A stretch of 63,282 bases of DNA, filler included, from Collodictyon triciliatum (lineage: Eukaryota), in NCBI GenBank assembly GCA_043381765.1. It is 3 parts of 3 records of this genome, joined end to end, with 100 filler letters (N's around TTAATTAATTAA, not from the genome) between each part and the next. Parts side by side here need not be neighbours in the genome. Positions count along the whole stretch, not along the records: positions 28,247 to 56,328 come from JBHJMP010000984.1; 2 more parts are not named here. The stretch is one strand, 5' to 3'. Made by a program: the position numbers and the translations under genes. Below the pieces are notes generated by a model. The model saw only the letters and a list, made by a program, of their open reading frames with translations, did not search any database and had not been told where the DNA came from. Shown in pieces: positions 446-62,981 of this stretch (position 1 is the stretch's first letter; the number at the start of each line of letters is the position of its first letter).

Positions 446-539
446 ATATAGGGATTCATTTCATTAGTGTACATAATGAGGGCATCAGATGGATATAGGG
501 ATTCATTTCATTAGTTTAAATAATGAGGGCATCAGATGG
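446..539. repeat. 47-bp tandem duplication overlapping the stop codon of the WD40/Cys-rich gene
   Basis: atatagggattcatttcattagt(g/t)ta(c/a)ataatgagggcatcagatgg at 446-492 and 493-539, 2 mismatches. Confidence 0.9.
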
Positions 540-3500
540 ATAAAGGTTCCTGGTCTTTGATATCGGTCATTTCCTTCTCATTTGTAGGTCCTTTAACTTC
601 GCTGGTGATAGCAGAAAAACACCAATACAGGACTTCGAAAATGGAGCAGAGATGATCTATAATCGTATTTAAAGTAGAAATAATGAAATCCGGACCACCT
701 TTATATATAAAGAATATTGCAATAAAACCGTTGGAACAAACGACTAGGGCAACTAAAAAATCTTTGGTTGAGCTACTTAGGTCTGAATATCGGAAAAGAA
801 GGCTCATCATTAGGGTAAAATAGAGGACAGCAACCGACCGAATCTGAGATTTCTTCAAAACATTAGACATGAAAGGCCTAAAGTAAAGCGATGATGCAAT
901 AGTAATCAAAAGTAGCCACAAGCCAAAATAAATTTGAAGGGCAGGGGAAAAGAAAATGCTTATTAGGACAACAAGCAACTTTTGCATCATCATAACAATT
1001 TCCCAATAGTAACACCTCTCAGTATATCCATCCACCAAAAATCTGAGCAAGTAGTATGTATCAGAGGATGGATCTATTAAAGATGACCTCTTGTAAACCA
1101 TATATGCAGCAAGTATAAGTGGGCCGCCGATGCAATATGTCACAATGTAAACGAAAGATATACCTTTCCAGCGAATATATATTGGGTCATCGCACATTAT
1201 AGACATATCTGAGCTAAGGTAACTTTTCCCACCAAGTATTTTACAACCAAATATATTTGAAATAGATGATGCGATAGTAGGATGAACAAAAAACAGCATG
1301 ACCAGCATCGAATATATAAACTCTTGGTAGAGCTTGTATAAGGTAATTTCATCTCTTGTGATTTCCTTGGTTTGTAACCTCCACGCATTTTTTATTAAAA
1401 TTAATATCACAACAATTCCTACCAAAATAAATGGAATTATCATAGAATAAAGAACCTTATCATAAATTATCAGATCGAATCTACAGTCCACAGGGTATGT
1501 ATTCGCTGATAATGAAAACGAAAACAATGCTGGAAACTTCATCATGGTTATGATGGTGGAACTCCAATCTGCATCGAAGTTGGCCAAGTATGACAAAATT
1601 TGGAAATGTGTCGATAGGGTCTTAAGTATTAAGATGCTCCCCGTTCTTGGTTGCCTTGATTGCTCTATCATATAAGCAGCAAATACCAACGGAATAACTA
1701 TGCTTAAGAAAATCAAAAACTCACTGGCCCCTTGTTTTGGGCATTTAACGCAAAATGTACCAGTTTTCCCATATCCTTTTTCACAAACGCTGCATAGCGC
1801 TCCCTTATATCCACTGGCACACTCATTATTCCCCCCATTACAAGCATCTTCATTAAGACATTTATAAGCTACATACTCCCCGTTTGAGTGCTGCGCTTGC
1901 CAATATCCAGGAAAAACATATAGGTTATTACTACCGTCACATTCAAAGTTTTTTGGACAATTTTTGCATCCTTTACTATTGGCATCCAAGTATGTCAATG
2001 GAAGACATGTACAATTCTCCATTGAAACTGAACCAGCCGTGCTTGTAAATGAATTTACGGGGCATTCTTTGCACAAAGTTTGACCATAGTCAGGGTTGTA
2101 AAATCCTGGAGAACATTTAAAACATTCTTGCTGCTTTTCATACCATCCAGGTTTGCATTCACAGGTAGAATTTATCGCTTCAAAGCCAGTCTTACAGACA
2201 CAATCAATGGAATTCATGGAACCATTATTTTTCGTAGAAAATTTCTCACCACAAGATACGCAAAAATTTGTGCCTATTGTTGGTTTGTATGAACCAAGTT
2301 TACATGGAACACATTTATTGCCATCCTCAAACTGTCCAGGAGGGCACGAGCAAACACCACCATAATATACATAGGAATCTATGCATTCGCAGTCATCTAT
2401 TGATTTAGAGCCTTTTGAGGTAGTATTTGAGCGTGTGGGACATGAGTTGCATAAAGAACTTCTTTCTGAGCTGTAGCTTCCATTTGGACATAAAACACAT
2501 GATGATTTATCAAATGAGCCGGTTTTATTGTTGAATGTTCCTGCTGGACATGAATAACATGATGCTTGGCCATCTCTATCATTCCAAGTACCTTGTGGAC
2601 ATTCCATGCAAAAAAATTTACCATATGAGCCAGATTTCGAGTTGAATGTGCCCTTTGGGCAAGCGTAGCATGATTTGGGGTCTTTCGTAATGTCTTCTTT
2701 TTGATAGAATCCTGGTGAGCATGAAGTGCATGATGCGCTTCTTTCTGAGCTGTAGCTTCCATATGGACATGAAATGCATGCCGACTTATCAAATGAGCCG
2801 GTTTTGTTGTTGAAAGTACCAGACAAACATGCGACACAATCAAGTTTGGGAGTATCCTGATAGGTCCCTTGGGGGCATTCTAAACATGAAGAATTGCTAG
2901 TCGACCCAACCCTAGGATTATATGTACCTTCAGTACAATTTTTGCAAGAGATTTGTCCATTTTCATCATTATAAGTCCCTGTACTACAAAATGAGCAAAC
3001 AATTGAACCCGAAATAGAGGAGAAACTTCCTTTTTCACATAACACACAATCGGTTATATTTTTTGATGCGGGATTCATATTATATGTTCCGGCAGGGCAA
3101 TTATGACAAAAATTAGCCTTTGTTATGTTGGAGTACGCTCCTGGCTGACAAGGAGAACAGAAACTTTTTCCATGTTCTTTATTGTAAAAACCAACCGGGC
3201 AATCAAAACAAAAAGTTTGTCCCCTTATATTATTGTATGTTCCTGGTTCGCAGTCGCTGCAGAATGATTGGCCTGATTTGTTCGTGTACTTTCCTTCATC
3301 ACAAAAAAGGCAAGATTGTTGGGCTTCGGACGGGTTATAAGTTCCTGGTAGACATCGATTGCACTTAGTCTGTCCCAAGTTTGGGCTATATGTTCCAGGT
3401 TCGCACGAAAAACACATCGACTGGCCGCTTGTGTTACCATACATTCCTGGAAGACACAGCAAGCAAGAGCTAGAGCTTGTCGAACCATTTGAGGGATTGT

Positions 3501-4669
3501 ATGAACCAGGCGGGCACAAACTACAACGAGACATACCTCCAAGACTAAAACTTCCAGGTGGACACAATTGGCATGTTTTTGATTCATAATTGTAAAAGTA
3601 ACCAGCAGCACAAAGTCCCCAAAATTTTATTGTACCATCCCCACTTCCAGAGATTATATTAGAATCATCTGGAGTAACCAACACACTAAATACGTAGTAG
3701 GAATGGCCAACAAGCGTTCGAATCAAAGTTCCGTCGGAAGCATTCCATATCATGATTGTCCGGTCAGAGCTTCCAGATATAATTTTGGAGCTGTCATGGG
3801 TAATGGCGACACTGTAGATATTATTTGTATGTCCAATCAAAGTAAGAATGGATTCCCCGCTGCGGAGATTCCATATTTTAATTGAATAATCAGCACTGCC
3901 CGAGACAATTTTTGAGTCATCAAGGGAAATAGCTACAGTGTAAACATAATTCTTATGACCAGTAAATGTTTGAATCAAAGCTCCGCTTGAAAGATTCCAA
4001 ATTTTTATTGTTCTATCTAAACTCCCTGATATAATTTTGAGGGTGTCGTGAGTTACAGCGACACTACTCACATCACTACTATGACTAGTCAACGTACGAA
4101 TCAAAGTTCCGTTTGAAAGATTCCAAACCTTGACCGTTTTATCAGCACTACCAGAAACGATAATTGAGCTATCGGGCAAGGTGATTACACTATTTACCCA
4201 ATGTTTATGACCAGTGAGGGTATGAAGTAGACTCCCATTAGAAAGAGTCCAAACCTTGATTGTGTTATCTTGTCCTCCAGAAACGATAAATGAACCATTA
4301 GGCGTAAAAGCAACAGTTGAAACATAATCAGTGTGACCTCTCAGTGTCTGACTCAGATTGCCGTTTTTCATGTTCCAAACTTTAATCACTTGATAGCTTC
4401 CAGAAACTACTTTGGAGCCATCGGGACTAACTGATACACTGAAAATAATATCTGAATGTCCATTCAGTGTGCGGATTAGGTATTCTTGGCCTTCAACCTC
4501 ATAGTGTTTGCTAATTAAGTCTAAAGATAAACCTAAATAGGAAATACAATGTAAATAATTTGCCAATAAGTTATTTTTATGAAATTTTGGGACTTGTCAT
4601 GATATCCAAGAGGTTAATCTTACAGCATATGACGACAGCTGCGAAAAAATACCTCAAGGTAGTAAGCAT
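532..4669 (-). CDS. Receptor-like protein: signal peptide + 7-blade WD40 propeller + Cys-rich (GCC2/GCC3, ephrin-receptor/TNFR-like) repeats + multi-pass (~8-9 TM) C-terminus
   Basis: The 1344-aa ORF starts at TTG. An upstream exon 4669-4624 (ATG...MLTTLRYFFAAVVIC) splices via GTAAGA...TTTAG (intron 4623-4533) in frame into C-LSLDLISKHY. Seven GH...W(N/T/G) repeats (~4473-3616), many CxxCxxGxY repeats (~3615-1740), hydrophobic helices (~1730-640). Confidence 0.9.
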
Positions 4670-46956: not shown

Positions 46957-47480
46957 NNNNNNNNNNNNNNNNNNNNNNNNNNNNNNNNNNNNNNNNNNNN
47001 NNNNNNNNNNNNNNNNNNNNNNNNNNNNNNNNNNNNNNNNNNNNNNNNNNNNNNNNNNNNNNNNNNNNNNNNNNNNNNNNNNNNNNNNNNNNNNNNNNNN
47101 NNNNNNNNNNNNNNNNNNNNNNNNNNNNNNNNNNNNNNNNNNNNNNNNNNNNNNNNNNNNNNNNNNNNNNNNNNNNNNNNNNNNNNNNNNNNNNNNNNNN
47201 NNNNNNNNNNNNNNNNNNNNNNNNNNNNNNNNNNNNNNNNNNNNNNNNNNNNNNNNNNNNNNNNNNNNNNNNNNNNNNNNNNNNNNNNNNNNNNNNNNNN
47301 NNNNNNNNNNNNNNNNNNNNNNNNNNNNNNNNNNNNNNNNNNNNNNNNNNNNNNNNNNNNNNNNNNNNNNNNNNNNNNNNNNNNNNNNNNNNNNNNNNNN
47401 NNNNNNNNNNNNNNNNNNNNNNNNNNNNNNNNNNNNNNNNNNNNNNNNNNNNNNNNNNNNNNNNNNNNNNNNNNNNNNNN
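46957..47480. other. Assembly gap (524 N)
   Basis: Run of N. Confidence 1.
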
Positions 47481-48370
47481 GAAGTGGCGACACGCAACTA
47501 TATCCAAGAATGGACACATCGTCGCAATCGCCCACAAAATCTATTCCAATTCAGCATCAATGTTCTAAATAAGGAGCTTTCTGGAATTACCCGGAACACC
47601 CCTATTTCCTTGTTTCATTCGATAGTCCATATTTAGTCAAGTCTTTATGCGGCTAATTTGTTGAAGGATTACCGAATACAGTGATGGGTGCCACCCGAAA
47701 CGTTCGTACAAATGCGGTTTTAGTATCAATGAAACTTGCCAAAAAGTTGCAATTGCCCATTCATTTGTGGAATTTACAGTAATTTTGAATTTTCGACCAC
47801 ACTGCAGGCCAGGGCGCACTAACGTTGGAGTAGAGTGTATGAAGGAGAGCAAACGCCAGTAGGAGACACTATTGGTGCCAGAGAGCAACTAGGTAAGGAA
47901 TAATATGTTCGGTACAAGGGGTGGAACGTCATGGAGCAGTACTGGAATTGAACAGCTGATAACCAGGCACCCAGAGCGCTGAACGTAATGCTGGTGCTTC
48001 GGTATTATAAATGTTATTATAGCCCAAAAAGAGAGAGAGAAAAGAGAACAAAAAAACGATTTTTTTTTTATTATTGTTATATTTTGGAAATTGAGGATGT
48101 AACAGCACAGAATAAAGAAATGACACTATGACAGATTTGATATAGGTGCCGATGTACAACTCTGAGGGTTAGTCTGGGAAGCTTGAATGCCGGATGTGGT
48201 ACGGCTTGAAAATACGGGCTCCATATTTCCATCCCAATATGTCAAATTAAGTTGCACTGTGCAGAGTATGAAAGCAGGAAGAGGAATGGAAGGAGAATCA
48301 AGAGCTAAAAAAAAAAAAAAGAACGAGTAACTCTGGGGTGGTGTGATGTGGAGTGCAACAAATGAATAAG

Positions 48371-51300
48371 CTAGGCAACTCTCAGTATGACTATACTGCT
48401 CTCCCTAGACTGGGGTGAGTTAGAGGGTGCCTCTCGTAGGAATTCGTCGGCAATGAAGTCGACAACAGCGTCAGCAGCCGATTGGGACTGAGCGGAGAGC
48501 CGATGAGCTCGGGGAGGATCGATGGCAGCAGAGCGAAGCCTAAATGAAGGGGATGCAGCATTGGACGAGACCGACGAGGAGCGTGAGCGATGGGGCACAT
48601 AGACTGCAGGTTGCGTCCCTTGCAACAAAGACACCGGGACGGCGTCCAAGAGGGCGGGATTGACTGCAGGATTTGGCTTTGCTTCTGTGGGATTTGGCTT
48701 TGCCTCTGTAAGATTTGGCTTCGCCTCTGTAAGATTTGGCTTGGCTTCCGATGTTTGGGCAACAATCAAGGGGCGGAAGGACTCCATAAAGTTTGCGACG
48801 GCAGACACGGTTTCGAGCGAGACGTCTGGGTATCCATACTGGATGGCATCGAGTAGATGCCCAACTGCAGCATCAAAAAGATCATCGGTGAGGTTAAGAT
48901 GGTGATGGTGCTTCTGAAGATCCACAGACGGCTTGCGGGCACGGCCACCCATGCCGATGATGAGGAAAGCCTTGAGGAAGTGGACCATGCGATTCATGTT
49001 GTAGTCGAGGAAGAACATCTTTTGGTAGATTAGTGAATGAGTAAATTAGGAAAGGAGTAAAGGAGTATAGGAGTAAATTGGCGAATTAGCAAGTAAACCA
49101 AAACGGCATCGCACCTTGAGTAACGGGTCCTTCAGAGCGCGGTAGAAGAAATCATCGATAATCAAGGAAAAGACCGCCTCTCCACCGAGCTGGTTGATGA
49201 GCGCCGAGTTGTGGACCGGAAGCTGGGGTGCCAACAGACCGAGAGCCGCAAGCTCCCTGTGTGCAGCCGAGACCGAGTCCTGCGCCGTCACCGGTGGCGA
49301 GATGTAAGTGTGGCTGTGTGTCGGTGCAGAGTGTGCAACGAGACGCAGCATCTGCTCCCTGGTCAGGCCGTTGAAGCGGAAGCCGATGCGGGCTACGGAG
49401 TCGAGCCCAGGCAGGGCCGGTGTGTAGCACGGGTTGCTGCGCAGGGCGGCAAGGAGGAGGGCGACGCCGCGGGGGCCGATGGCATTCCACTCGAGATGCA
49501 GCTGCAGGGCAGAGGGCGGGAGTCTGGGGAGGACGCGGGCAAGGACGCGGGCAACGCGGGGGCCGAGGCGATTGCCGCGCAGGCTGATGTCGCGCAGGCG
49601 GTGCCAGTGCAGGCGGCGCAGGACACGAGCGAGGGTGGGGCCGCAATCGGGGGCGAGTCCGCAGAAGTCCATGGCCAGCGAGGCAAGCTGCGTGCCGGGG
49701 CCGGACCCTGCGCGGCCGACAACGCCCTGCATCAGCTGGTGGAACCCGGCCGAGCCCAGCCCCGCGTTCTGACTCAGGCGCAGGTGGCGCAGCGTCGGGT
49801 GGGAGCGGAGGAGCGCGCTGAGCCACAGGGCGCTGCTGGGGCCGAGCGCGTTGTTGGCCAGATCCAGCCGCAGCAGTGGGACGCGGCCGCCCAGCAGCGC
49901 GCAGCACAGGCCCCGCACGGCCGCAGAGTCCAGCGCGTTGCCCGACAAGTCTAGTGCCACGACGCGGGCGTATGCGCCGGCCCCGCACTGCAGCCGCGGC
50001 CACACGCAGTGCGTCAGCGCCACCCACGCACCGCCCGTGCCCCCGGCGGCATCCACGTCTGCGCGGCACACAATTGCCTGCCCGCATCTGCCGCCATCGC
50101 CATCCGCTGCCATTGCTGCGTTCGAGAACCCTTTGGATGCCCGCACAAGATCCAGGGCCAGTCGCCCGCCTTCATCGCCCGCCGCGGGCCTCCATGCCTG
50201 CCGCCGCCCGGCGTCTGCCCCGTGTGCGCGGCGGGCTGCGGTGCCGTGGAACCCGTCTGCCGGCGGCCCCACAAACGCCCGCCACTTGGCCCGCAGCGCC
50301 CACCACACAAAGGCGTAGTACCCAGCCGCAAAGGCGCACAGCGTCAGCCACACAATCGTCCAGAAGCTCAGCCGCCGCCCCGTCAGCGCCACAATCTGCG
50401 CCACGCTGGTGGAGAAGACAATCGCGGTCTGCAGCCCGTGCGCGCGGATGTTCTCGTACGAGATGCGTCCGTTCACCGCTGCCGTGCATGCGAGGACGCT
50501 GCACAGAAACAGCGATGCCGGCACCTGTGCATCCGCGTTCTCATCTCCAGTCGCACTCGCATCGCCCCCATCCAGCGGGGTCTCCTGTGTCCCAAAGATG
50601 GAGATCAGGCAGAACGATATCTTTGTGGCGAGCAGGGTCAGGAAAAACACCGAGTTGCGTTCGTAGAAGAAGGAGGTCGGGTTCGACTTTGCTTGCTCCA
50701 GTCGTGAGTGCACTTGCCTCCGCTTGATGTAAAACGAAAGAAGAAACACCCCCGCGCAGAACATTGCGGCGGCACACAGCACCAGGTGTCTGGACGACCA
50801 ACAGGTGATGCTTGGGTCAATCGCGTGCACAAAGTGCGCCGGCCTCTCTGTATCCTTCATGTTCTCCCCAGCAACACTCCACAGTCCTTCTTCCAGTTTC
50901 AGGCTTTGAATCCATCCACCAGGCTCCGTCAAATCCTCATCACGTCCTCGCAGTATCAACCCTTCCGCATCTCCAACAGCTTCCAAGGTGTCTGCAGACT
51001 CGCCCGCCAGATATCTTCTGTACTCAGTTTCGCTTCGATATCCAGTCCTTGAGCCCGTAGAGTTGCATAGAAACACGGAAAATAGAATCGAAAACACTGG
51101 CATGGCCATCCCTACCATGACGAAAAACCAAATCGACCTCCCATACGCACAGGCCTTGAGCCCAAAGACCGCCACCAAATCCTGAGTCCTTGCAAGGGAC
51201 ATCCCTGCACCAGTGGTTATAAACCCAATCACCAGTGCTATCACCATTGTGTAGGAAGACTCGAGAAATCGAGGTGGATACGGGCTGTACTTTTGCATCC

Positions 51301-52879
51301 ACCGAATGACCCCAGGTACATCTCGTACCCCTACCAGCCCGGTTCCAAATGGTGCCCAGTAGAGTTGCATCGCTCCAATCCACAAGGCAAAGAATTGCCA
51401 CGCGAAATATGCTTGTTGCGTCGCTGACCATCTCTGAATCTCTTCCTCAGGGGGTCCAGCAAGTGCTGCTGCTCGCTGCATCAGCGTTAGTAAGGTTCTG
51501 CGATTGCGCTTTGTGTCTGCATACGCATCTTTCACTTCAGGCTCTCTTGCATCAGCTTTGTCAATATCGCCTTTCTTATTCTCTCCGTAACCTGGCCGTG
51601 CTTCCTTGGCATTCGAACTCGATACTTTTGTTTCGGTAATTGAACTGCTGGTATGCACTTGTGTATGTCCTGTCACGATCGCATGGTTCACTTTCTCGTT
51701 CATTGGCTTTGGAATACTGTGTGTTGACTGAAATAACTGGATGGGTGATAGCCTCGCCTCTTGCTTGGCAGAACTCCCTCCTCTGAACTCAGTGCTGCAA
51801 GGTGGCTTTTCTTTTAAATGCTCATTATTCATCTTTCTCATGATGTCATCCACAGCCTTTTCAAGCTCTGCAATATCATCCGAATCTACTCCTGGTCTTG
51901 GCTCCTCATCCACAGACGGCTTCTTTCGTTCCTTCTGGTTTTCTCGTATCACAATGTCCTCCCTGTTGGAAAATACGTCTTTTTTGTTTTCTCTATCTTT
52001 TTCTCTGTACCTGTCCTTTGTTTTGATCCCATGATCGTTGGGTGGAATGTCTATCTTTACCGAAAGCGCGTCTTGACTTTTCCATGCTTGCTGCTGACTC
52101 GAGGTACCTGGGCTTCTTTGATTGTAGTTATGGTTGTGTCGTTGCTTGTAAGAATCTTGCGAATTGTGTTTGAGACCTCTCTTGTGGAAGCGATTCAAGT
52201 GTGGCTTCAGATGGTCCATCTCCAGTTGGCTTTCATCAAAGTCTTCCCCGACAAACCGTTCATGCAATCCTTCTCCCTCCATCCTCTCCGGAAGCAAGAC
52301 TGTCACGACTCCCACGTCCGGGCTGTTGATTTCAGAGTCCAGATCCAGATCCAAGTCCATGTCAAAGTCGACGTCAGCGTCGGGGTCTGTCCGTGGATGA
52401 TTCTTGCTGGACACAACAGAAGACGACGCAGCCGATTCAGACCGGGGCGAGTCCGTCCCATGAAGTCTCTGTCTCGGGTGATTATCAGTAAAGTCCAACG
52501 CCATCTCTAGCCTCATTTGACTCTCCGCTATATCCTCATCGCCAAGCTCAGAAGGCAGAGTGACTTTTGTGCCTCGCAGGCTACGGATAGCATTCAGGAG
52601 ACGCTGCTGAAGGCGGACCGGAAGACACTCGAGGAGAACGATGATGGGGATGGGCAAAGGCTCGCGCTGGGTCTGTTGCCGAATGAGGTCCTCCCAGTGT
52701 CCGGCCTTCACCCAGGGTATTGGAATTCCCTCCTCGCCTTCTTCCTCATGCCTTGGAATCATCGGTTGCTGGGCGTGGGACGAATCAGAGGACGGAGGAG
52801 AGTCGGGTGCCTGCTGTGCCTGCATCTGGTGTCTTGTGACTCGACAGTTCTGCTCCAACGCGGGTCCTCTATGAAGCAT
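48371..52879 (-). CDS. Multi-pass membrane protein + RI-like leucine-rich repeats + C-terminal group I truncated (2/2) haemoglobin
   Basis: Exon 52879-49115 (charged disordered N-term; TM helices ~51410-50290; ~7 LxxLxLxxNxLG repeats ~49965-49340). A phase-0 GT-AG intron 49114-49019 joins it to exon 49018-48371. The junction reads LINQLGGEAVFSLIIDDFFYRALKDPLLK|MFFLDYNMNRMVHFLKAFLIIGMGG...DLQKHHHHLNLTDDLFDAAVGHLLDAI, the TrHb1 pattern. Upstream exons possible. Confidence 0.85.
48670..48750 (-). repeat. 21-bp coding tandem repeat (EAKPN[L/P]T x3-4)
   Basis: SEAKPNLTEAKPNLTEAKPNPTEAKPNPA immediately after the globin domain. Confidence 0.9.
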
Positions 52880-52914: not shown

Positions 52915-52973
52915 TGTTTGTTTTGTTTTGTTTTGTTTATTTTGTTTTGTTTTGTTTTGTTTATTTTGTTTTG

Positions 52974-53004
<31 letters not shown>

Positions 53005-53068
53005 TGTTTTTGTTTTTGTTTTTGTTTTTGTTTTTGTTTTTGTTTTTGTTTTTGTTTGTTTTTGTTTG
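52915..53068. repeat. (TTTTG)n/(TTTTTG)n microsatellite
   Basis: Penta/hexamer T-rich repeat upstream of the globin-fusion ORF. Confidence 0.95.
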
Positions 53069-56758: not shown

Positions 56759-58464
56759 ATACTACGGCGGCAACGAGCACATCGACGCCATCGAGACGCT
56801 CTGCCAGCAACGGGCCCTCGCACTCTTTGGCCTGGACGAGAAGGAGTGGGCCGTGAATGTGCAGCCGTACTCTGGGAGCCCAGCCAACTTTGAGGTGTAC
56901 ACAGCGCTTCTGCAGCCGCACGACCGCATCATGGGACTGGATCTGCCATCAGGCGGGCATCTGACGCACGGATACATGACCGGCAAGAAGCGCATATCTG
57001 CATCGTCCATCTACTTCGAATCCATGCCCTACCAAGTGAACATGGTGAGCAAGAGGCAGCAGCTTTCATCGCTGATGCAACCCTATCTGTCTTGATTGTC
57101 TATTCAACCATCCACACAGACCGATGCTGTCATACCACAGCATCAATCACAATAGCAATTGCATATGGATTTCACCGATTCTTGGCCACTCAACCCTCCT
57201 TCAAATCTCCTGCCTCAGCCAGCAACCGAGCCCATCGCACCCCCTCTTTATCTCAGAGACACATTCTTGCTGACCAATCCGCCACATAGCAAACCGGATG
57301 GATCGACTACGACCAACTGGAGGCAAGCGCGCTGCTTTTCCGCCCGCGGCTGCTCATCTGCGGAGCCAGCGCATATCCACGCGACTACGACTACGGCCGA
57401 CTGCGGGCCATCGCCGACAAAGTGGAGGCGGTGCTGATGTGCGACATGGCGCACTTCTCGGGGCTTGTGGCAGCCGGCGCCGTTGCCAGCCCGTTCGGAG
57501 TATGCGATGTGGTGACAACAACGACGCACAAGTCGCTGCGCGGGCCGCGGGCCGGGATGATCTTTGTGCGCCGCAGCCTGAGCATCGCCGGGCAGAGCGC
57601 AGAGGAGCGCATCAACTTTGCCGTCTTCCCAAGCTGCCAAGGCGGGCCGCACAACCACACGATTGCCGCCATGGCCACGGCCTTCCGCGAGGCAGCCACG
57701 CCGCAGTTCCGCCAGTATGCGCACGATGTCCAGGCCAATGCCCGCGCCCTCGCCGCCGCCCTGCGCGACACATACGGCTACAAGCTTGTCACCGACGGCA
57801 CCGACAACCACCTTGTCCTCTGGGACCTGCGCCCGCTCGGCCTGACCGGCAACAAGCTGGAGAAGCTCTGCGACCTGGCTCACATCACCCTCAACAAAAA
57901 CACGGTCCATGGAGACGTCTCCGCCTTCACCCCGGGCGGCGTCCGCATCGGCACCCCCGCACTCACCTCCCGTGGCCTCACCGCTGCCCACTTTGCCACC
58001 GTCGCCGCTTTCCTCCATCGCGCCGTCCAGATTGCCGTGGCCATCCAGGTCCTCCTCTGTCTATCTTCCCTTCGTTTGCTTTGGCTTCGAGTCCTATATG
58101 TCCGATTCTCATGCTTGTTTTGTCGCTGATTCCTTTGTTTTTCTCCTTTTTCTCCGGTCTTCCTCTCTCTTGCTCCCTTCCTTTCCTTTCCTTCTGCTGT
58201 CTATTCTACTTGGCTCTGCAGGAAAAGTCAGGAAAGAAGCTCGCAGACTTCCTGGCCGCCCTCCCCGAGAACGAGGACATCAAGGTTTGTGCCGCCCCGA
58301 CCAGCCACCCTGCTTTGCTTTCCTTTTGCTTTTTCTTTTTTTTCTGACCGTCTGTGTCTTGCGAATAGGCGCTCGCGAAGGATGTGAAGGAGTTTGCCGT
58401 CCAGTTCCCGATTCCCGGCTGGGACGCCTCGTCCATGCGCTACCAGCCATCATCGGCGGAGTAG
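56759..58464 (+). CDS. SHMT: Serine hydroxymethyltransferase (eukaryotic type), 5' exon(s) missing at the spacer
   Basis: [71 protein letters not shown] (PLP lysine), [28 protein letters not shown]; stop TAG 58462-58464. Confidence 0.97.
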
Positions 58465-58797
58465 AGTTTCTCCGCACCCTAAAGACACCAGCACAAACGC
58501 CTCGGCTGCCGGCACGCGGGTCTGCCCTTTGTGCGGGGGACGGTTTCGTTTTAATCAATGCAGAGATTCATATTGTGTCGACGTCGTCGCGGGTGGGAGG
58601 GAGAATGAAGGGGTTTGTGGAGTGGAGGCCTAAAATAGGAGGGGAGATATAATAGCTGCGGAATGATGGGGGTTCTTTTCGTTTGTCTGCGTCGCGCTTC
58701 GTTGCTTGGTGGAGGCTCACCTGCCTAAGCAGGCCGGCCGAGAGTCGAAGGGTGCGGTGGGTTGTGGCACGAGTGGGGTTGCGTGAGTTTGTGCAGG

Positions 58798-61088
58798 TTA
58801 TTCGCTGGTCGGGGCGGCGGGCTCCTCTTGCTTCTTCTCCTCGTCCTTGGCTGGTGCAGAGGCATCGCCTGAGGCGGGCTGAGGCTCAGATTCTGCCGCA
58901 GGTGCAGAGGCAGGTTCAGAGGCAGGAGCAGGAGTGGGTTCAGGTTCAGAGGCAGGTTCCGCATCCAAAGCAGCGGGCTTCTCGTCGGCCTTCTCGGGTG
59001 CCGGCTCATCCACCTTGGCCGGAGCTTCTGCGGCGGCCTTTGGCGGGCGCGTCTCTGGCTTTGCAAGGTAGCGAAGTCCCACCTTTGCGTCGGCACTGAT
59101 CTCGAATGTGTCGACAGCAGCGTCGAATGCCTCTGCTCCGCCGTAGCTTTGTGATTGTGAGGATTGAGTGCTGAACTTGTTTTTTTTTTTTTGTTCGTTT
59201 GTTTGGCAATGATGAGATGCAGTGAATCGGCCGCTACTTACACGTCCAACACGATGGCGAACAACTTTGTCGCGTTCTGGAGCACATCGCCGTCCTTCTT
59301 GGCGGATATGTACCCGATAGACTGCATAAACTCGTTCACGTGCTTGTGGGTCTTGATTTCGCTTTTCTGTGTGTTGGGTCAAGTTTCGTCAGAGGGATGC
59401 CTTCCATTTGAGGCGAGATGAGGTTTCTTTTTCCATTGCGCATAGAGTATTCATAATCCCAAGTTCGCGCAGGCATGAACTCCTCCACGCGGGGCACGTG
59501 ATGATGTGACTTACGAAGGTCTCGACAAGGAGATGCAGGCCCTCGAAGGCAAGGGCGGATTGTCGTGTTGAGCCGTCGCAGAATCTCTCCGCAAAACCAA
59601 AGAGATATTGTGGGCAGTGGCGGGCGATGTTGATGAGAGCCTAGTGGGAAATGAGCTACTCGTTAATCGATTGCAGTCATTAATTTGACCGCTTAGTTAG
59701 TACTTTTTGTTGTCGAATGCATCATATCTTACTGGATTGATGAACTCTTGCTTCCTGACTCGGTGCGATGCGGCTGAAACCAAGCTATCAATCTGACAAT
59801 TCATCGATATACAGCTGTTAGGTGTTTATAAAAAGCAATTGGGCTTGCAAGGCTGGCTAGCCACACACATACACATATATATATATGTTTAACATATATT
59901 AAGATTTGAATGGGAGGGATGGGGTGTTTCACACAAACCAAAGTGTTATAGTCCAACTTTCTCTGAAGCAGATTAACGATTTCATCCACGGCTGTGACTG
60001 CGTGGTGCGAGACATTGTGAACAGAAGAGTCGACGAACTCCAACAGGATATCAACAGCCTTCTCCCTGCAGATGATAATGAAAGAGGAACAAACAAACAA
60101 ACAAACGATCAGACCAACCTACCGACCAAATACCGGACGCAGCACAGACAAAAACTCTGACAGTTGCAAGCCCCAGGCACAATATAAAAACGATCACTAG
60201 ATTGACAGCAATAAAATATCAACTGCTTCTCCTGCAGAAACTCTGGCTTGTGGGCAGTCAACTGACGGATACCAGTGATCACGGGGACATTCAAGTTCCA
60301 CTCACGCGTTTGCTGCGCCTCCAGAATTTCCTACAGCAGAAAACACAAGCCGTACGCTTAGTCGACTCTCAGAGCCTCTTGGCCGGCATTGACAGGAAAT
60401 GTGAAGGGAGAGAGAGAGAAAAAGAAAAGTAAAGAAAAGAGGAAACAATATGACAACAGAAATAGGGAAAGAAACACCGACACACCTTCCAGAGCTCCTC
60501 ATGGTCTTGCACAGCAGGGAGCGCACTTTGTGGGAGAATGGCCTCCTTCTGCTCCTTGTCCACCGGCAGCGCGCGGAAGACGTGGGCGGGAGTCACGGTC
60601 GCAGCCGCAGCTGCAGGACTGGACGTGGCCGCCCCGACACTGCCGCTGGACGCGCGGCGGAGAAATACACGGGTGGACGCACGGGTCGGAGTCAACAGAG
60701 CCCCGTCCGTCTCGCTCTGCTGGCGGCGCGACTTGCGCTTGGATCCGGGCGTCTCGGCAGCTACCGGCGTGGAATCCACACTCGCGGAATCGGCAGAAGC
60801 AGAAGCAGAAGCAGAAGCAGAAGCAGAAGCAGAAGTGGAAGCGGAGTCGGCCATTGGCTCGTCGGCCTTCTGTGCCTCTTCAAGAGCCGGCTTCTCCTCA
60901 GGCGCAGATGTCGGGGCTGCGTCGCCTGCGGCTTCCACAGAGGCGCCCGATTCGTCCACCCGCTGCTTCTTGTTGGCAGACTCCTCTTCGTTTGCCACGG
61001 CCGCGGTGACAGTCGCTTCGCTTGTGGGCGCTGCTGCTGCTGCTGCTGTTGTTGTTATTGGCAGTGTGGGTTCGGTGCTGTCGGCCAT
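58798..61088 (-). CDS. HEAT/TOG-like (CLASP/TOGARAM-type) domain protein flanked by acidic Ala/Pro-rich disordered tails, multi-exon
   Basis: Spliced core EILEAQQTREWNLNVPVITGIRQLTAHKPEFLQEKQ|EKAVDILLEFVDSSVHNVSHHAVTAVDEIV...|...ALINIARHCP... resembles TOG HEAT A/B (W..xx.xx..xR.L..H.P..L); start MADSTEP at 61088. Confidence 0.5.
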
Positions 61089-62981
61089 GGTTTGTGCGGT
61101 GCTATATATGGTATGGTCAGTCAGGTTTTTTTGATCAGCTTGTGCGGGCGAGAAAGCAGGATGGTTTTTCTTCCAGACTCCTTGGAACGGGGTTCGACTG
61201 TGATAAGGCGATGAGGGAAGTCGGTCTCTTGTTTCGTTAGGGTTTTGGTGGGTCATATTTGGTGCGCGCTGGGTTTTAGCGATCAGGTTTGTTTGGACTT
61301 AGTTTGGGGTTATGTTTATGCCCGGGTGGGGGAAGGAGAAATCGTGGCGTCCAGGTTTTTGGTGTGGGAAGGCCTCTTGGGAGATTGGATCAGGCTTTGT
61401 GGTATTATTGTTCCGTTGGAATATTCGTACGTCTTTATAGGTTGCTGTGACTGGTTTTCCTGGATGGAGTAGTGCATTTGGGTATTGATATTCTTTGAAT
61501 GTAAGTAAAAATATGTCGCTGGCACACAAGCGTATTCCACATGTGGGTGTTTGAACGTTGGTTGCATCTGGGAAATTGTGATGGGTGTATGAAATTGTCG
61601 ACATTATGCAAATGTGGAAAGGGTAAGAAGGGCGGAAATTCTCTAGCTATTATCCATCGGTCGTGTTTTCGTGTCTGTCGCACACGTTCCGCATAGTCCG
61701 TTCGCTTATTTACCATCTCCATTTGATGGACGATGACTTTTTTTTTTTGTACACATTGTAAATCAGATATTCATTTTAGAAATTCAAGTTTATTAGGTTA
61801 AATTAATAACCAAAATATCAATTAAAGACAGAAAAACAGTCAGAAGTTATATGTTTTTCCCCTCTCCATTTTTTTTCTGTGTTGCGTCCAGATGAAACTG
61901 CAAGATGTAAGCATTTAATGAATGACAAAACACAGTCGACATTGACTCTACCTACGCGTCGTGCAAAGTCCCATAGGATTTTCAGATTATTGTAAATTGA
62001 GATGTATATAGGCAAACTATTCTGTAGGAAGTGTGCCATGGTTTATGTGAATCAATTTATACGCTGATTAGGTAGGTATTTTTTTTTATTCTCCCAGAAG
62101 TGCCAGGTCGACAATTGGAAGCAGAGTCGTGTGATAGTCATAAAACATTTCCTTCACATAACTCATCTATATTTCAAATGATTCTCCATACAAAAACAAA
62201 AACTTTAACAATACCAAATTTCCAAAAAAACCAAACCAAACCAAAGAAAACCAAAAAACAGAAGGTAGAAGATAACATTTTTTTTTTAGATACCACACAC
62301 AAAAATTAAAATCACTGATACAATAATGCAACCGAACGATGGCTAGCGAACCTTTTCTTAGTTCAACAGTTTCATATCGAGAGAATCATCAATAGTTGAG
62401 AAATCGAGCAGAAATTACTGAATAAACATTATGTTTCGTTTATTGATTGAAAAAAAAAAACATAATATTATTGTTATTAAGAAAATGGCAATTTCAGAGC
62501 AGCTACAGGAGGATAGTGGGTTCTGGTAAAACGAAATCTAAAAGTCATCGTGACAGGCAATTCCTTTCTTCTCAGTATATATGGGAAACTTTAAATGATG
62601 CGTGAATTAGTATTCATAATCACATTGATAAGAGCATTAATATTTTCCAGACCGCGTAAATATAAATTTTCACGAATCTATTCTTCTGATACACTGACGT
62701 TTCGTCGGTTTGCCAGTGACAATATTATAACACCTGTATAATAGGAACATCCTGCACAAAATTGAAAGGAAGAATAAAAAAAAAAAATGTATAATAGGAA
62801 AATCTACAGCAACGGATATGAGAATATCCCGAATCAATTTTTTCTCGCAAAGATGTTCGAGGGATTAATTATATAATTTTACAAATATACGAGAAAAATG
62901 ATTCATTCGAGGAGCAAAACTTTAGCCATCACCCCTGGTTTTATTCTTCAAAAACTGTCATTTATCTTATTTTCTCATTCT

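Follow-up and report, generated by a model that had tools for sequence, protein, structure and literature searches.

The window, i.e. the entire stretch of 63,282 nucleotides of Collodictyon triciliatum DNA (assembly GCA_043381765.1, filler included) which was analysed here, contains two minus-strand ORFs at 49046..52879 (1277 aa) and 48371..49018 (215 aa). Both very probably belong to a single spliced gene. Exon 1 (49115..52879, minus strand) extends from the first ATG of the longer ORF to the splice donor and comprises 1255 codons (aa 1-1255); exon 2 (48371..49018, minus strand) comprises 215 codons (aa 1256-1470) and the TAG stop at 48373-48371. They are separated by a predicted phase-0 intron of 96 nt with GT..AG borders (49019..49114, minus strand), placed by reading the splice sites and by the globin-profile score. 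The junction reads ...CTC AAG/GTGCGA...CCAAAAG/ATG TTC, with AAG/GT as the donor and ATG as the exact first codon of exon 2. Within the intron, a single in-frame TAA (49048-49046) and a branch-like CTAAT motif about 15 nt upstream of the AG are present, and its GC content amounts to 0.375 compared to about 0.55 in the exons on either side. The predicted spliced product is one membrane protein of 1470 aa.

The preliminary description had joined the two ORFs in this way and located the intron inside a globin domain, which is borne out by the ORFs, the splice sites and the gapless globin match restored by the junction. A profile of group 1 truncated haemoglobins (trHbs), built from 13 annotated members (alignment A1), aligns to the spliced protein without a gap over aa 1227-1316, with 48.7 bits and, for this one target, an E-value of 4e-17. 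Applied to the unjoined pieces, the same profile yields 26.2 bits for exon 2 alone, 5.7 for exon 1 alone and 6.3 for the unspliced ORF. Among 138 open GT..AG combinations the proposed junction ranks first with 52.8 bits vs 29.6 for the runner-up, and in 2000 shuffled controls the profile score never exceeded 9.9 bits. Of the 1215 pieces obtained by six-frame translation of the window, moreover, exon 2 matches this profile best (27.7 bits, E-value 1.9e-7). Searched alone, neither globin half is reported by Pfam PF01152 or by NCBIfam. The tail of exon 1 aligns to residues 5-33 of 5d1v and exon 2 to residues 45-116 of HbN; both halves hence match trHbs in contiguous register, which counts for a single spliced gene. 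In the first part of the globin (49115..49201, minus strand; aa 1227-1255), the first Gly-Gly hinge precedes the B helix, which holds Phe1244 (B9) and Phe1245 (B10); the second part (48797..49018, minus strand; aa 1256-1329) contains CD1, E7, E11, the second Gly-Gly hinge, F8 and G8 along with the G and H helices.

One might suppose that no splicing takes place, the 1277-aa ORF ending at the intron TAA to give a TM-LRR protein and the 215-aa ORF being a separate product or a decaying remnant. The shorter ORF indeed opens with its own ATG, a joined contig was not found among the contigs of other runs, none of which bridges 48902-49129, and sequence searches for orthologues returned none to corroborate the junction. 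Yet globin halves flank a 96-nt AT-rich GT..AG segment and become gapless via this junction only, which is very unlikely to arise by chance. In addition, of the six exon 2 variants which contigs of other runs show, four leave the amino acid of the joined frame unchanged. We therefore consider an unspliced locus very unlikely. Stop-codon reassignment as an alternative way of joining the ORFs is opposed by the presence, within the window, of ORFs that run for 1344 and 1277 aa without a stop.

Across the gene, the contigs of other runs contain 26 variants, 18 of which are synonymous in the gene frame vs three and four in the other two frames. Random placement of these variants (5000 trials) gives 7.9 synonymous ones on average and never more than 16. 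In exon 1, synonymous variants account for 13 of 20. This synonymous excess indicates that the frame is under purifying selection. An assembly chimera, in which the LRR block with its 70-75% GC would stem from another source, is suggested by the GC content, which climbs within the ORF from about 0.5 to 0.71-0.73, and by a stretch of N's located downstream of the gene at a distance of about 900 nt. Contigs from four other runs, however, tile both GC boundaries with 97-100% identity, nine of the ten variants in the GC-rich LRR block are synonymous in the continuous frame, and the window holds other GC-rich islands, so that a chimeric origin of the architecture appears extremely improbable. Domain boundaries, too, are tiled by independent contigs: X1 record 4 (49130-49353) spans from the LRRs into the globin, and X2 record 10 together with X5 records 17 and 18 (50199-50602) covers the passage between the last TM helix and the linker.

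The N-terminal region (51440..52879, minus strand; aa 1-480) is rich in Glu, Ser, Asp and Arg, matches neither Pfam nor PDB entries and is probably disordered. The membrane domain (50294..51391, minus strand; aa 497-862) comprises six strong and two weaker hydrophobic helices, the former reaching a Kyte-Doolittle hydropathy of at least 1.5 over 19 aa. One of its loops, 91 aa long (aa 607-697) and acidic, bears a single N-x-T sequon. Acidic loops connect TM3 to TM4 and TM5 to TM6, and TM4 and TM8 are each followed by basic residues; this charge distribution fits an N-in/C-in arrangement with both ends probably cytosolic. For the membrane domain, no Pfam family scores above noise and no PDB sequence match was found; its look-alikes according to a language model are unnamed eukaryotic clusters. 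The linker (49964..50293, minus strand; aa 863-972) is rich in Arg, Ala and Gly and strongly basic directly after the last TM helix. It leads into the LRR block (49310..49963, minus strand; aa 973-1190; 70-75% GC) with seven repeats of the ribonuclease inhibitor (RI) type, a type which we define by tandem 28-29-residue repeats, an LxxLxLxxN/C core and a match to RI and NLR LRRs. The seven LxxLxLxxN cores begin at aa 973, 1002, 1030, 1065, 1095, 1124 and 1162, at a spacing of 28-38 aa. Pfam LRR_6 (PF13516) is matched with 32.7 bits (cut-off 23.4), and the top PDB match is human ribonuclease inhibitor (1a4y, E-value 3.7e-17, four stretches). In an exhaustive search all 150 matches listed fall in the LRR region alone. 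The C-terminal tail (48374..48796, minus strand; aa 1330-1470), which consists of four tandem 7-residue EAKPN(L/P)T units followed by a Ser/Ala/Pro-rich part, has no family match; the low-complexity composition of these last 140 or so residues, together with the absence of a Pfam or PDB match, suggests that they are disordered.

The order of a TM domain, RI-type LRRs and a group I truncated haemoglobin given in the preliminary description is supported by these sequence comparisons, and so are its roughly seven RI-type LRRs by the seven cores, the LRR_6 score and RI as best PDB match. Of its 8-9 TM helices, the multi-pass domain as such stands with a count lowered to 6-8 by hydropathy; its disordered ends agree with low-complexity composition and lacking family matches, from which the disorder itself is deduced.

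With respect to the globin, the excised domain obtains 54.7 bits with the group I profile and 11.8 bits with a profile of 10 group II proteins. At G8 it has Ala1306; Trp is invariant there in the group II alignment and also characterises the groups O, P and Q (PMC4720485). Eight of nine PDB sequence matches are group 1 trHbs, and the three best Atlas clusters are identified as Bac_globin. A model of the half domain encoded by exon 2 (helices E to H) shows a pLDDT of 72.2; it was built with a trHb alignment and hence depends on it. In Foldseek, all 20 rows listed for this model among ranks 1-23 are truncated haemoglobins, with probabilities of 0.63-0.99 and TM-scores of 0.51-0.58 but E-values of 0.15-0.97. 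The profile's own members score 112-156 bits vs 48.7-54.7 for the domain described here. Judged by these comparisons, the globin is a divergent member of group I (T1/N) rather than of group II, and its earlier classification as a group I truncated haemoglobin is upheld by the profile match, the proximal His, Phe CD1 and both Gly-Gly hinges.

Residue positions of the haem pocket were taken from profile alignments (A1, A2 and A3) and from M. tuberculosis HbN, whose numbering we take the helix positions used here to follow. The putative proximal His (F8), His1293 (codon 48905..48907, minus strand), is the second of four consecutive His residues and aligns with the only invariant His of all three alignments as well as with position 81 of M. 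tuberculosis HbN. Gly1232-Gly1233, Gly1279-Gly1280 and Phe1258 (CD1) fall in conserved columns. The gapless alignment assigns Phe1244 to B9, Phe1245 (codon 49147-49145) to B10 and Tyr1246 to B11, meaning that the Phe B9 - Tyr B10 pair is absent, with Phe in place of Tyr at B10. A shift by one residue in helix B would make Tyr1246 B10. In PMC4720485 the pair is described as the most conserved distal feature; Tyr is missing from the B10 column in three of the 13 members of A1 too, so the pair is typical, not absolute. After the second Gly-Gly hinge, Lys replaces a Tyr which is invariant in A1. Positions E7 and E11 are occupied by Met1266 and Leu1270, the Gln of E7/E11 being absent, and the residues that line the distal pocket (Phe B10, Phe CD1, Met E7, Leu E11, Ala G8) are all apolar. 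The same paper names B10, CD1, E7, E11 and G8 as the positions that set ligand reactivity, gives koff values of up to 1e4 per s for highly hydrophobic pockets and reports that low affinity in clade N accompanies Leu at E7, E11 and G8 (PMC4720485). An apolar distal pocket thus disfavours an HbN-like O2/NO-dioxygenase and favours a haem site of low O2 affinity and of NO/CO/redox type.

We consider it reasonably likely that the putative globin domain binds haem. Counting against this, Phe is found at B10 and Lys after the second hinge; these exchanges of Tyr make a haem-free or otherwise altered domain possible. The globin might accordingly have kept its fold and lost its haem chemistry, or the latter might be irrelevant, leaving a module that serves structure or protein binding where the LRR arm ends. 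Apart from both exchanges, such a pseudo-globin would agree with the apolar E7 and E11, with the modest profile match (48.7-54.7 bits as against 112-156) and with the existence of non-haem globin families, which PMC8717448 mentions. Nevertheless, the proximal His, Phe CD1 and both Gly-Gly hinges, which should be the earliest to drift once haem is lost, are kept and the profile alignment is gapless; we regard the loss of haem function as unlikely. A further reading would make the protein an NO dioxygenase, or a different redox enzyme, that resembles M. tuberculosis HbN and is tethered to the membrane, LRRs and TM helices providing placement only. The best-studied group I members detoxify NO (PMC3493545), and other globins, such as globin X (cited in PMC7475203), are known to be tethered to membranes. 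The present protein, however, has neither Tyr B10 nor Gln E11, which stabilise bound O2 in group I proteins (PMC4720485), and is devoid of a reductase partner domain, which renders an enzyme of this kind quite unlikely.

Since the wholly apolar distal pocket predicts O2 to be held weakly, a regulatory role appears the most likely of these functions. Haem b would be bound through His1293, NO or CO would still be able to bind in the pocket, and the ligand or redox state of the haem might change the way in which the LRR surface next to it contacts a partner or the membrane domain. The protein would then be a membrane-anchored haem-based sensor, neither an O2 store nor an NO dioxygenase. A spliced TM-LRR-trHb gene acting as such a sensor is, taken as a whole, our best explanation, to which we assign somewhat less than an even chance; the sensor or regulatory role in itself, which the preliminary description had proposed as gas or redox sensing and which is read from sequence, is put forward tentatively. 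That the membrane domain belongs to no recognisable family counts against the sensor reading, and so does the absence of kinase, cyclase and MCP output domains in Pfam scans.

A multi-pass membrane domain followed by a C-terminal LRR domain is also present in LRRC8/VRAC anion channels, whose cytosolic C-terminal LRRs modulate the membrane part. LRRC8 proteins possess four pannexin-like TM helices, about 17 LRRs and no globin, and no LRRC8 chain is among the 40 PDB matches of the LRR region. The top sequence and fold matches of the globin are group I trHbs (M. tuberculosis HbN, Paramecium, Tetrahymena, Chlamydomonas THB), with which it shares the B-H helix profile match, the Gly-Gly hinges, Phe B9, Phe CD1, His F8 and a small non-Trp G8. 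While these are stand-alone or tandem domains of about 116-136 aa with Tyr B10 and polar E7/E11, the domain described here forms a C-terminal part of a 1470-aa membrane protein, has Phe, Met and Leu at these positions and is encoded in two pieces, with an intron separating the B helix from CD1. To our knowledge, research on truncated haemoglobins has dealt almost exclusively with small soluble proteins, and it is the other globin lineage, that of the globin-coupled sensors, to which signalling roles are assigned.

A membrane-bound globin-coupled sensor occurs in Geobacter sulfurreducens (PMC8076648). It likewise combines a haem globin and a membrane domain in one chain, with a proposed relay of ligand or redox state to another domain. 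In globin-coupled sensors, however, a 3/3 globin of the S family is N-terminal and the host bacterial or archaeal, whereas here a 2/2 globin of the T family is C-terminal in a eukaryote, LRRs lie in between and no transmitter domain is recognised. Membership in this class is ruled out by the C-terminal T-family globin and the lack of MCP, kinase or cyclase domains in Pfam scans.

The closest architecture is that of Allomyces macrogynus AMAG_16521T0, a 1129-aa in silico chimera of RI-like LRRs and a group 1 T globin (Hoogewijs et al. 2012, PMC3287990); eukaryotic chimeric T1 globins are mentioned in a review as well (PMC7475203). Compared by published description, both proteins, each known from sequence alone, show one and the same succession of modules: RI-type LRRs (578-800 in Allomyces and 973-1190 in the present protein) lead through a short linker to a group 1 truncated globin (826-944 and 1227-1329, respectively), after which comes a C-terminal extension (185 aa and about 140 aa). 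They differ in that the N-terminus of the Allomyces protein (20-560) consists of further RI-like repeats, with no membrane domain reported in the published description (PMC3287990), whereas the N-terminal two thirds of the present one are made up of a low-complexity region and 6-8 TM helices. The preliminary description had known of no characterised TM-LRR-TrHb1 architecture: the LRR-T1 globin pair is already published for Allomyces, while a multi-pass membrane domain preceding it was not found elsewhere, and only this domain in front of the LRR-globin module appears new. As the pairing is now met in two unrelated contexts, it suggests a functional cassette and not an annotation accident. More speculatively, and with a rather small chance of being right in full, this may be the first eukaryotic membrane sensor coupled to a truncated haemoglobin, in which an H-bond-free pocket (NO/CO-selective or redox-reporting) would act via the RI-type LRR arm on a domain of eight TM helices resembling a channel or transporter; the LRR-T1-globin pair, known from Allomyces too, would be a reusable signalling cassette with front ends varying by lineage. 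If true, the attachment of a T-family globin to a membrane domain by way of LRRs would bring the 2/2 fold, and eukaryotic membranes as well, into the range of haem-based sensing.

Two open reading frames on the minus strand, of 1277 amino acids (49046..52879) and 215 amino acids (48371..49018), are present in the ORF listing as given in the preliminary description. In the minus-strand reading the upstream frame ends with ...CTC AAG followed by GTGCGA, and ...CCAAAAG precedes the ATG of the second ORF. The 96-nt phase-0 intron which had been proposed to connect them is indeed found as a GT..AG segment at 49114..49019 (minus strand), harbouring a branch-like CTAAT about 15 nt 5' of the AG as well as one in-frame TAA which constitutes the stop of the 1277-aa ORF. 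The GC content of this segment amounts to 0.375, similar to that of the intergenic DNA of the window, while the exon sequence on either side has about 0.55.

Scanned separately, the two halves of the gene yield in Pfam LRR_6 alone for exon 1 (49115-52879) and no relevant match for exon 2 (48371-49018); NCBIfam gives no match for exon 2 or for the LRR part. When compared with PDB sequences, residues 2-75 of exon 2 align with residues 45-116 of HbN, the group I truncated haemoglobin (trHb) of M. tuberculosis, and with other group 1 trHbs, which account for eight of the nine matches at E <= 1 (E 0.2-0.9). For exon 1, the C-terminal 29 residues match residues 5-33 of the bacterial globin 5d1v (E 0.2; one of two PDB matches at E <= 10 for this end), and the weak trHb matches of both exons are in contiguous register. 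Against a group I HMM built from an alignment of 13 genes located on plasmids and annotated "group 1 truncated hemoglobin", the spliced product, obtained by joining the exons by coordinates, scores 48.7 bits (E 4e-17 for one target) as one gapless domain in which profile positions 3-92 correspond to aa 1227-1316. Exon 2 alone reaches 26.2 bits, exon 1 alone 5.7 bits and the unspliced ORF 6.3 bits. Among 138 GT..AG combinations around the site (pairs 30-400 nt apart with an open frame) the proposed junction ranks first with 52.8 bits, followed by a runner-up with 29.6 bits, and 2000 shuffled versions of the domain attain 9.9 bits at most. Exon 2 is also the sole piece with E < 0.1 (27.7 bits, E 1.9e-7) in a six-frame scan of the 1215 pieces of the window. 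The Atlas language-model search, to be taken as a lead only, places three Bac_globin clusters at the top for exon 2 (0.83-0.86). Residues 1-95 of exon 2, modelled by AlphaFold as a half-domain with a trHb alignment, reach a pLDDT of 72.2, and the model finds trHbs by Foldseek against the PDB in 20 of 20 rows listed among ranks 1-23 (probability 0.63-0.99, TM-score 0.51-0.58, E 0.15-0.97). The model is thus compatible with a trHb fold, a result not independent of the trHb alignment which the model itself uses.

The best-supported reading, which we hold with good confidence, is that one spliced gene encodes a membrane protein whose LRRs and haemoglobin form a cytosolic module. Contigs of the public sequencing run X1 cover 48203-48901, 49130-49892, 50084-50554 and 51998-52711 of the gene. 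Among these and the contigs of the other runs none spans 48902-49129 or an exon-exon joint, and the rival reading, in which two unspliced genes take the place of the predicted splice, has to be weighed here against the globin domain which assembles across the junction; we rate it as improbable. The loose ends of the X1 contigs presumably represent the SMART template-switch oligo, which suggests, as a guess, that X1 is an RNA or cDNA library. Read-through of the intron by a stop-reassigning code was rejected since the long stop-free ORFs show no sign of such a code. Retention of the intron (49019-49114) would lead to a protein which ends 22 residues past the donor, i.e. a TM-LRR protein with the first globin helices only. 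That the globin module could be switched off by such truncation is pure speculation.

Contigs of four other public runs (X1, X2, X4 and X5) match the gene at 95-100% identity and differ from it at 26 single bases within the coding sequence. Of these differences 18 are synonymous in the proposed frame, compared to 3 and 4 in the other two frames, while random placement of the same base changes (5000 trials) averages 7.9 synonymous ones and never exceeds 16. Within the LRR block (70-75% GC), where several other frames are open, nine of ten differences are synonymous. Since sequencing errors would show no bias for the third codon position, the proposed frame, the LRR block included, is under purifying selection. 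The GC content within the ORF jumps from 0.44-0.59 to 0.71-0.73. We consider it most improbable that the gene is an assembly chimera, as the same contigs of other runs tile both the boundary between TM8 and the linker and that between LRRs and globin. Short contigs matching the gene at 97-100% identity originate from freshwater, lake-water and subsurface metagenome runs of three studies; hence, the organism carrying the gene, or a close relative, is probably a freshwater microbe.

GC-rich stretches occur elsewhere in the window, too. Islands of 62-75% are located at 49201-50600, 57201-58100, 58701-59100, 60501-61000 and 30901-31300, the rest of the window ranging from 31 to 45%. Several frames are open simultaneously on both strands of these islands, and the ORFs 57298-58347 (plus strand) and 60369-61256 (minus strand) therein are devoid of any Pfam match. 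A microsatellite, (AAAAC)n/(AAAACA)n, extends over about 140 nt (52920-53060) directly 5' of the first ATG of the gene, and an assembly gap (N run at about 46960-47480) follows about 900 nt downstream of its stop codon. A 1344-aa open frame at 532-4566 (minus strand) encodes an N-terminal WD40 beta-propeller and 12 Ephrin_rec_like repeats (PF07699, E 8e-75) with a GC3 of just 0.33, far below that of the LRR-globin gene. Finally, a 371-aa ORF at 19990-21105 (minus strand) shows a weak match to the AAA_16 ATPase family (E 1e-4, under the Pfam cut-off) and overlaps the next ORF (21068-21730) in a different frame, so that an intron may join both.

As expected from the preliminary description, the exon 1 product contains seven LRRs, with LxxLxLxxN-type cores starting at aa 973, 1002, 1030, 1065, 1095, 1124 and 1162 (LRR_6, 32.7 bits at a Pfam cut-off of 23.4). 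Their assignment to the ribonuclease inhibitor (RI) type is borne out by the closest PDB relatives: ribonuclease inhibitors come first (1a4y, E 3.7e-17), ahead of the LRRs of NLRP1 and NLRP3 and of axonemal LRR proteins (40 PDB matches at E <= 0.001). The top clusters for this region consist of NLR/RI-like proteins from fish or frog and unnamed metagenome proteins, a mixture that gives no taxonomic information. In the preceding membrane domain, strong hydrophobic helices (19-residue windows with a Kyte-Doolittle hydropathy >= 1.5) are located at about aa 545-563, 586-604, 700-718, 744-762, 784-804 and 840-858, with weaker candidates at about aa 497-519 and 811-830. Basic clusters follow TM4 (6 K+R) and TM8 (8 K+R in 40 aa), while the loops between TM3 and TM4 (91 aa, 17 D+E, one N-x-T sequon) and between TM5 and TM6 (6 D+E, zero K or R) are acidic. 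Under the positive-inside rule such a charge pattern fits an N-in/C-in topology, which would place LRRs and globin in the cytosol. Database comparison of the membrane domain gives noise only in Pfam (CopD, E 0.071; ResB, E 0.18) and no match at E <= 10 among PDB sequences; a single-sequence AlphaFold model is unusable (pLDDT 44.6). Its look-alikes in the Atlas are unnamed eukaryotic clusters (0.95, 0.93, 0.92). A cluster in which 25% of the members carry the TRP family (PF06011) ranks tenth in the Atlas (0.90); it is no more than a hint, and one lacking Pfam support. Neither the N-terminal 480 aa nor the C-terminal tail is matched in Pfam or PDB searches. The tail includes four tandem 21-nt units encoding EAKPN(L/P)T (48680-48760, minus strand).

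The pocket positions of the globin were assigned via gapless alignment to HbN and to the group I profile, using what we take to be the HbN helix numbering, whose sole corroboration is the E11 mutant chain 2gl3 with Val at position 58. The pocket comprises Phe1244 (B9), Phe1245 (B10), Phe1258 (CD1), Met1266 (E7), Leu1270 (E11), Leu1274 (E15), His1293 (F8), which is the second in a run of four His, and Ala1306 (G8). Thus, the proximal His, Phe CD1 and both Gly-Gly hinges are retained, while Tyr B10 and a polar residue at E7 or E11 are absent; Tyr1246 would occupy B10 if helix B were shifted by one residue. Lys replaces the Tyr after the second Gly-Gly hinge which is invariant in the 13-gene alignment. 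The spliced domain scores 54.7 bits with the group I profile versus 11.8 bits with a group II profile (10 "group II truncated hemoglobin" genes). For comparison, members score 112-172 bits with the profile of their own group and 6-51 bits with that of the other. In the group II alignment the G8 column holds an invariant Trp, a residue which PMC4720485 describes as typical of G8 in trHb groups O, P and Q. With the group I profile far ahead and Ala at G8, the earlier assignment to group I stands.

According to PMC4720485, ligand reactivity depends on the five distal positions (B10, CD1, E7, E11 and G8), no feature is better conserved than the Phe B9-Tyr B10 pair, O2 koff rises up to 1e4 per s in highly hydrophobic pockets, and low affinity in clade N accompanies Leu at E7, E11 and G8. 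In the globin, His1293 probably serves as the haem ligand. That the fold is haem-free and purely structural seems unlikely to us, the proximal His being retained. If haem is bound, O2 should be held only weakly because of the hydrophobic distal residues and these ligand data; the pocket suits NO or CO binding, O2 binding at low affinity, or a redox function. A tethered enzyme resembling an NO dioxygenase appears less likely still, as poor O2 retention would disfavour an HbN-like activity of this kind. We tentatively propose, as one possible role, that the H-bond-free pocket would make the globin a regulatory ligand or redox site, whose state may alter LRR-mediated contacts or the activity of the membrane domain.

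Relatives of the entire architecture did not emerge from the searches. With aa 480-1255 (776 aa), a word-index protein search returned one match, a fish NLRP12-like protein covering the LRRs only, and an exhaustive search 681 matches at E <= 0.001. The best 150 of these (top 100 bits) all fall on aa 939-1236, with no match to the TM region and no trHb domain among these 150 proteins. Comparison of exon 2 with proteins of near length gave 16 candidates, none of them scoring, and no LRR family occurs in 22 multi-domain or tandem trHb proteins retrieved by a trHb-alignment search at longer lengths, which is weak evidence. Neither the TM domain nor the second part of the globin gave a match when scanned against metagenomes, and a six-frame scan revealed no paralogue within the window. 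No orthologue was found in the metagenome contigs or in the protein collections searched, from which the window's own protein is likewise absent. Nor did we find a TM-LRR-truncated-globin protein described in the literature, supplementary tables and subscription protist-globin reviews being outside the scope.

Chimeric T1 globins are known to occur in eukaryotes (review PMC7475203). Hoogewijs et al. 2012 (PMC3287990) report a chimeric protein of 1129 aa from Allomyces macrogynus, in which the N-terminal residues 20-560 are RI-like, 578-800 form an LRR domain and 826-944 a group 1 T globin, followed by an unidentified C-terminal region of 185 aa. The preliminary description was aware of no characterised protein with the TM-LRR-TrHb1 architecture. 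In view of this chimera the pairing of LRRs with a group I trHb is not new, though uncharacterised, whereas no description of the multi-pass membrane front end emerged from the literature searched. The Allomyces protein shares with the gene studied here the order of LRRs, T1 globin and tail but, as reported there, differs from it in having no membrane domain.
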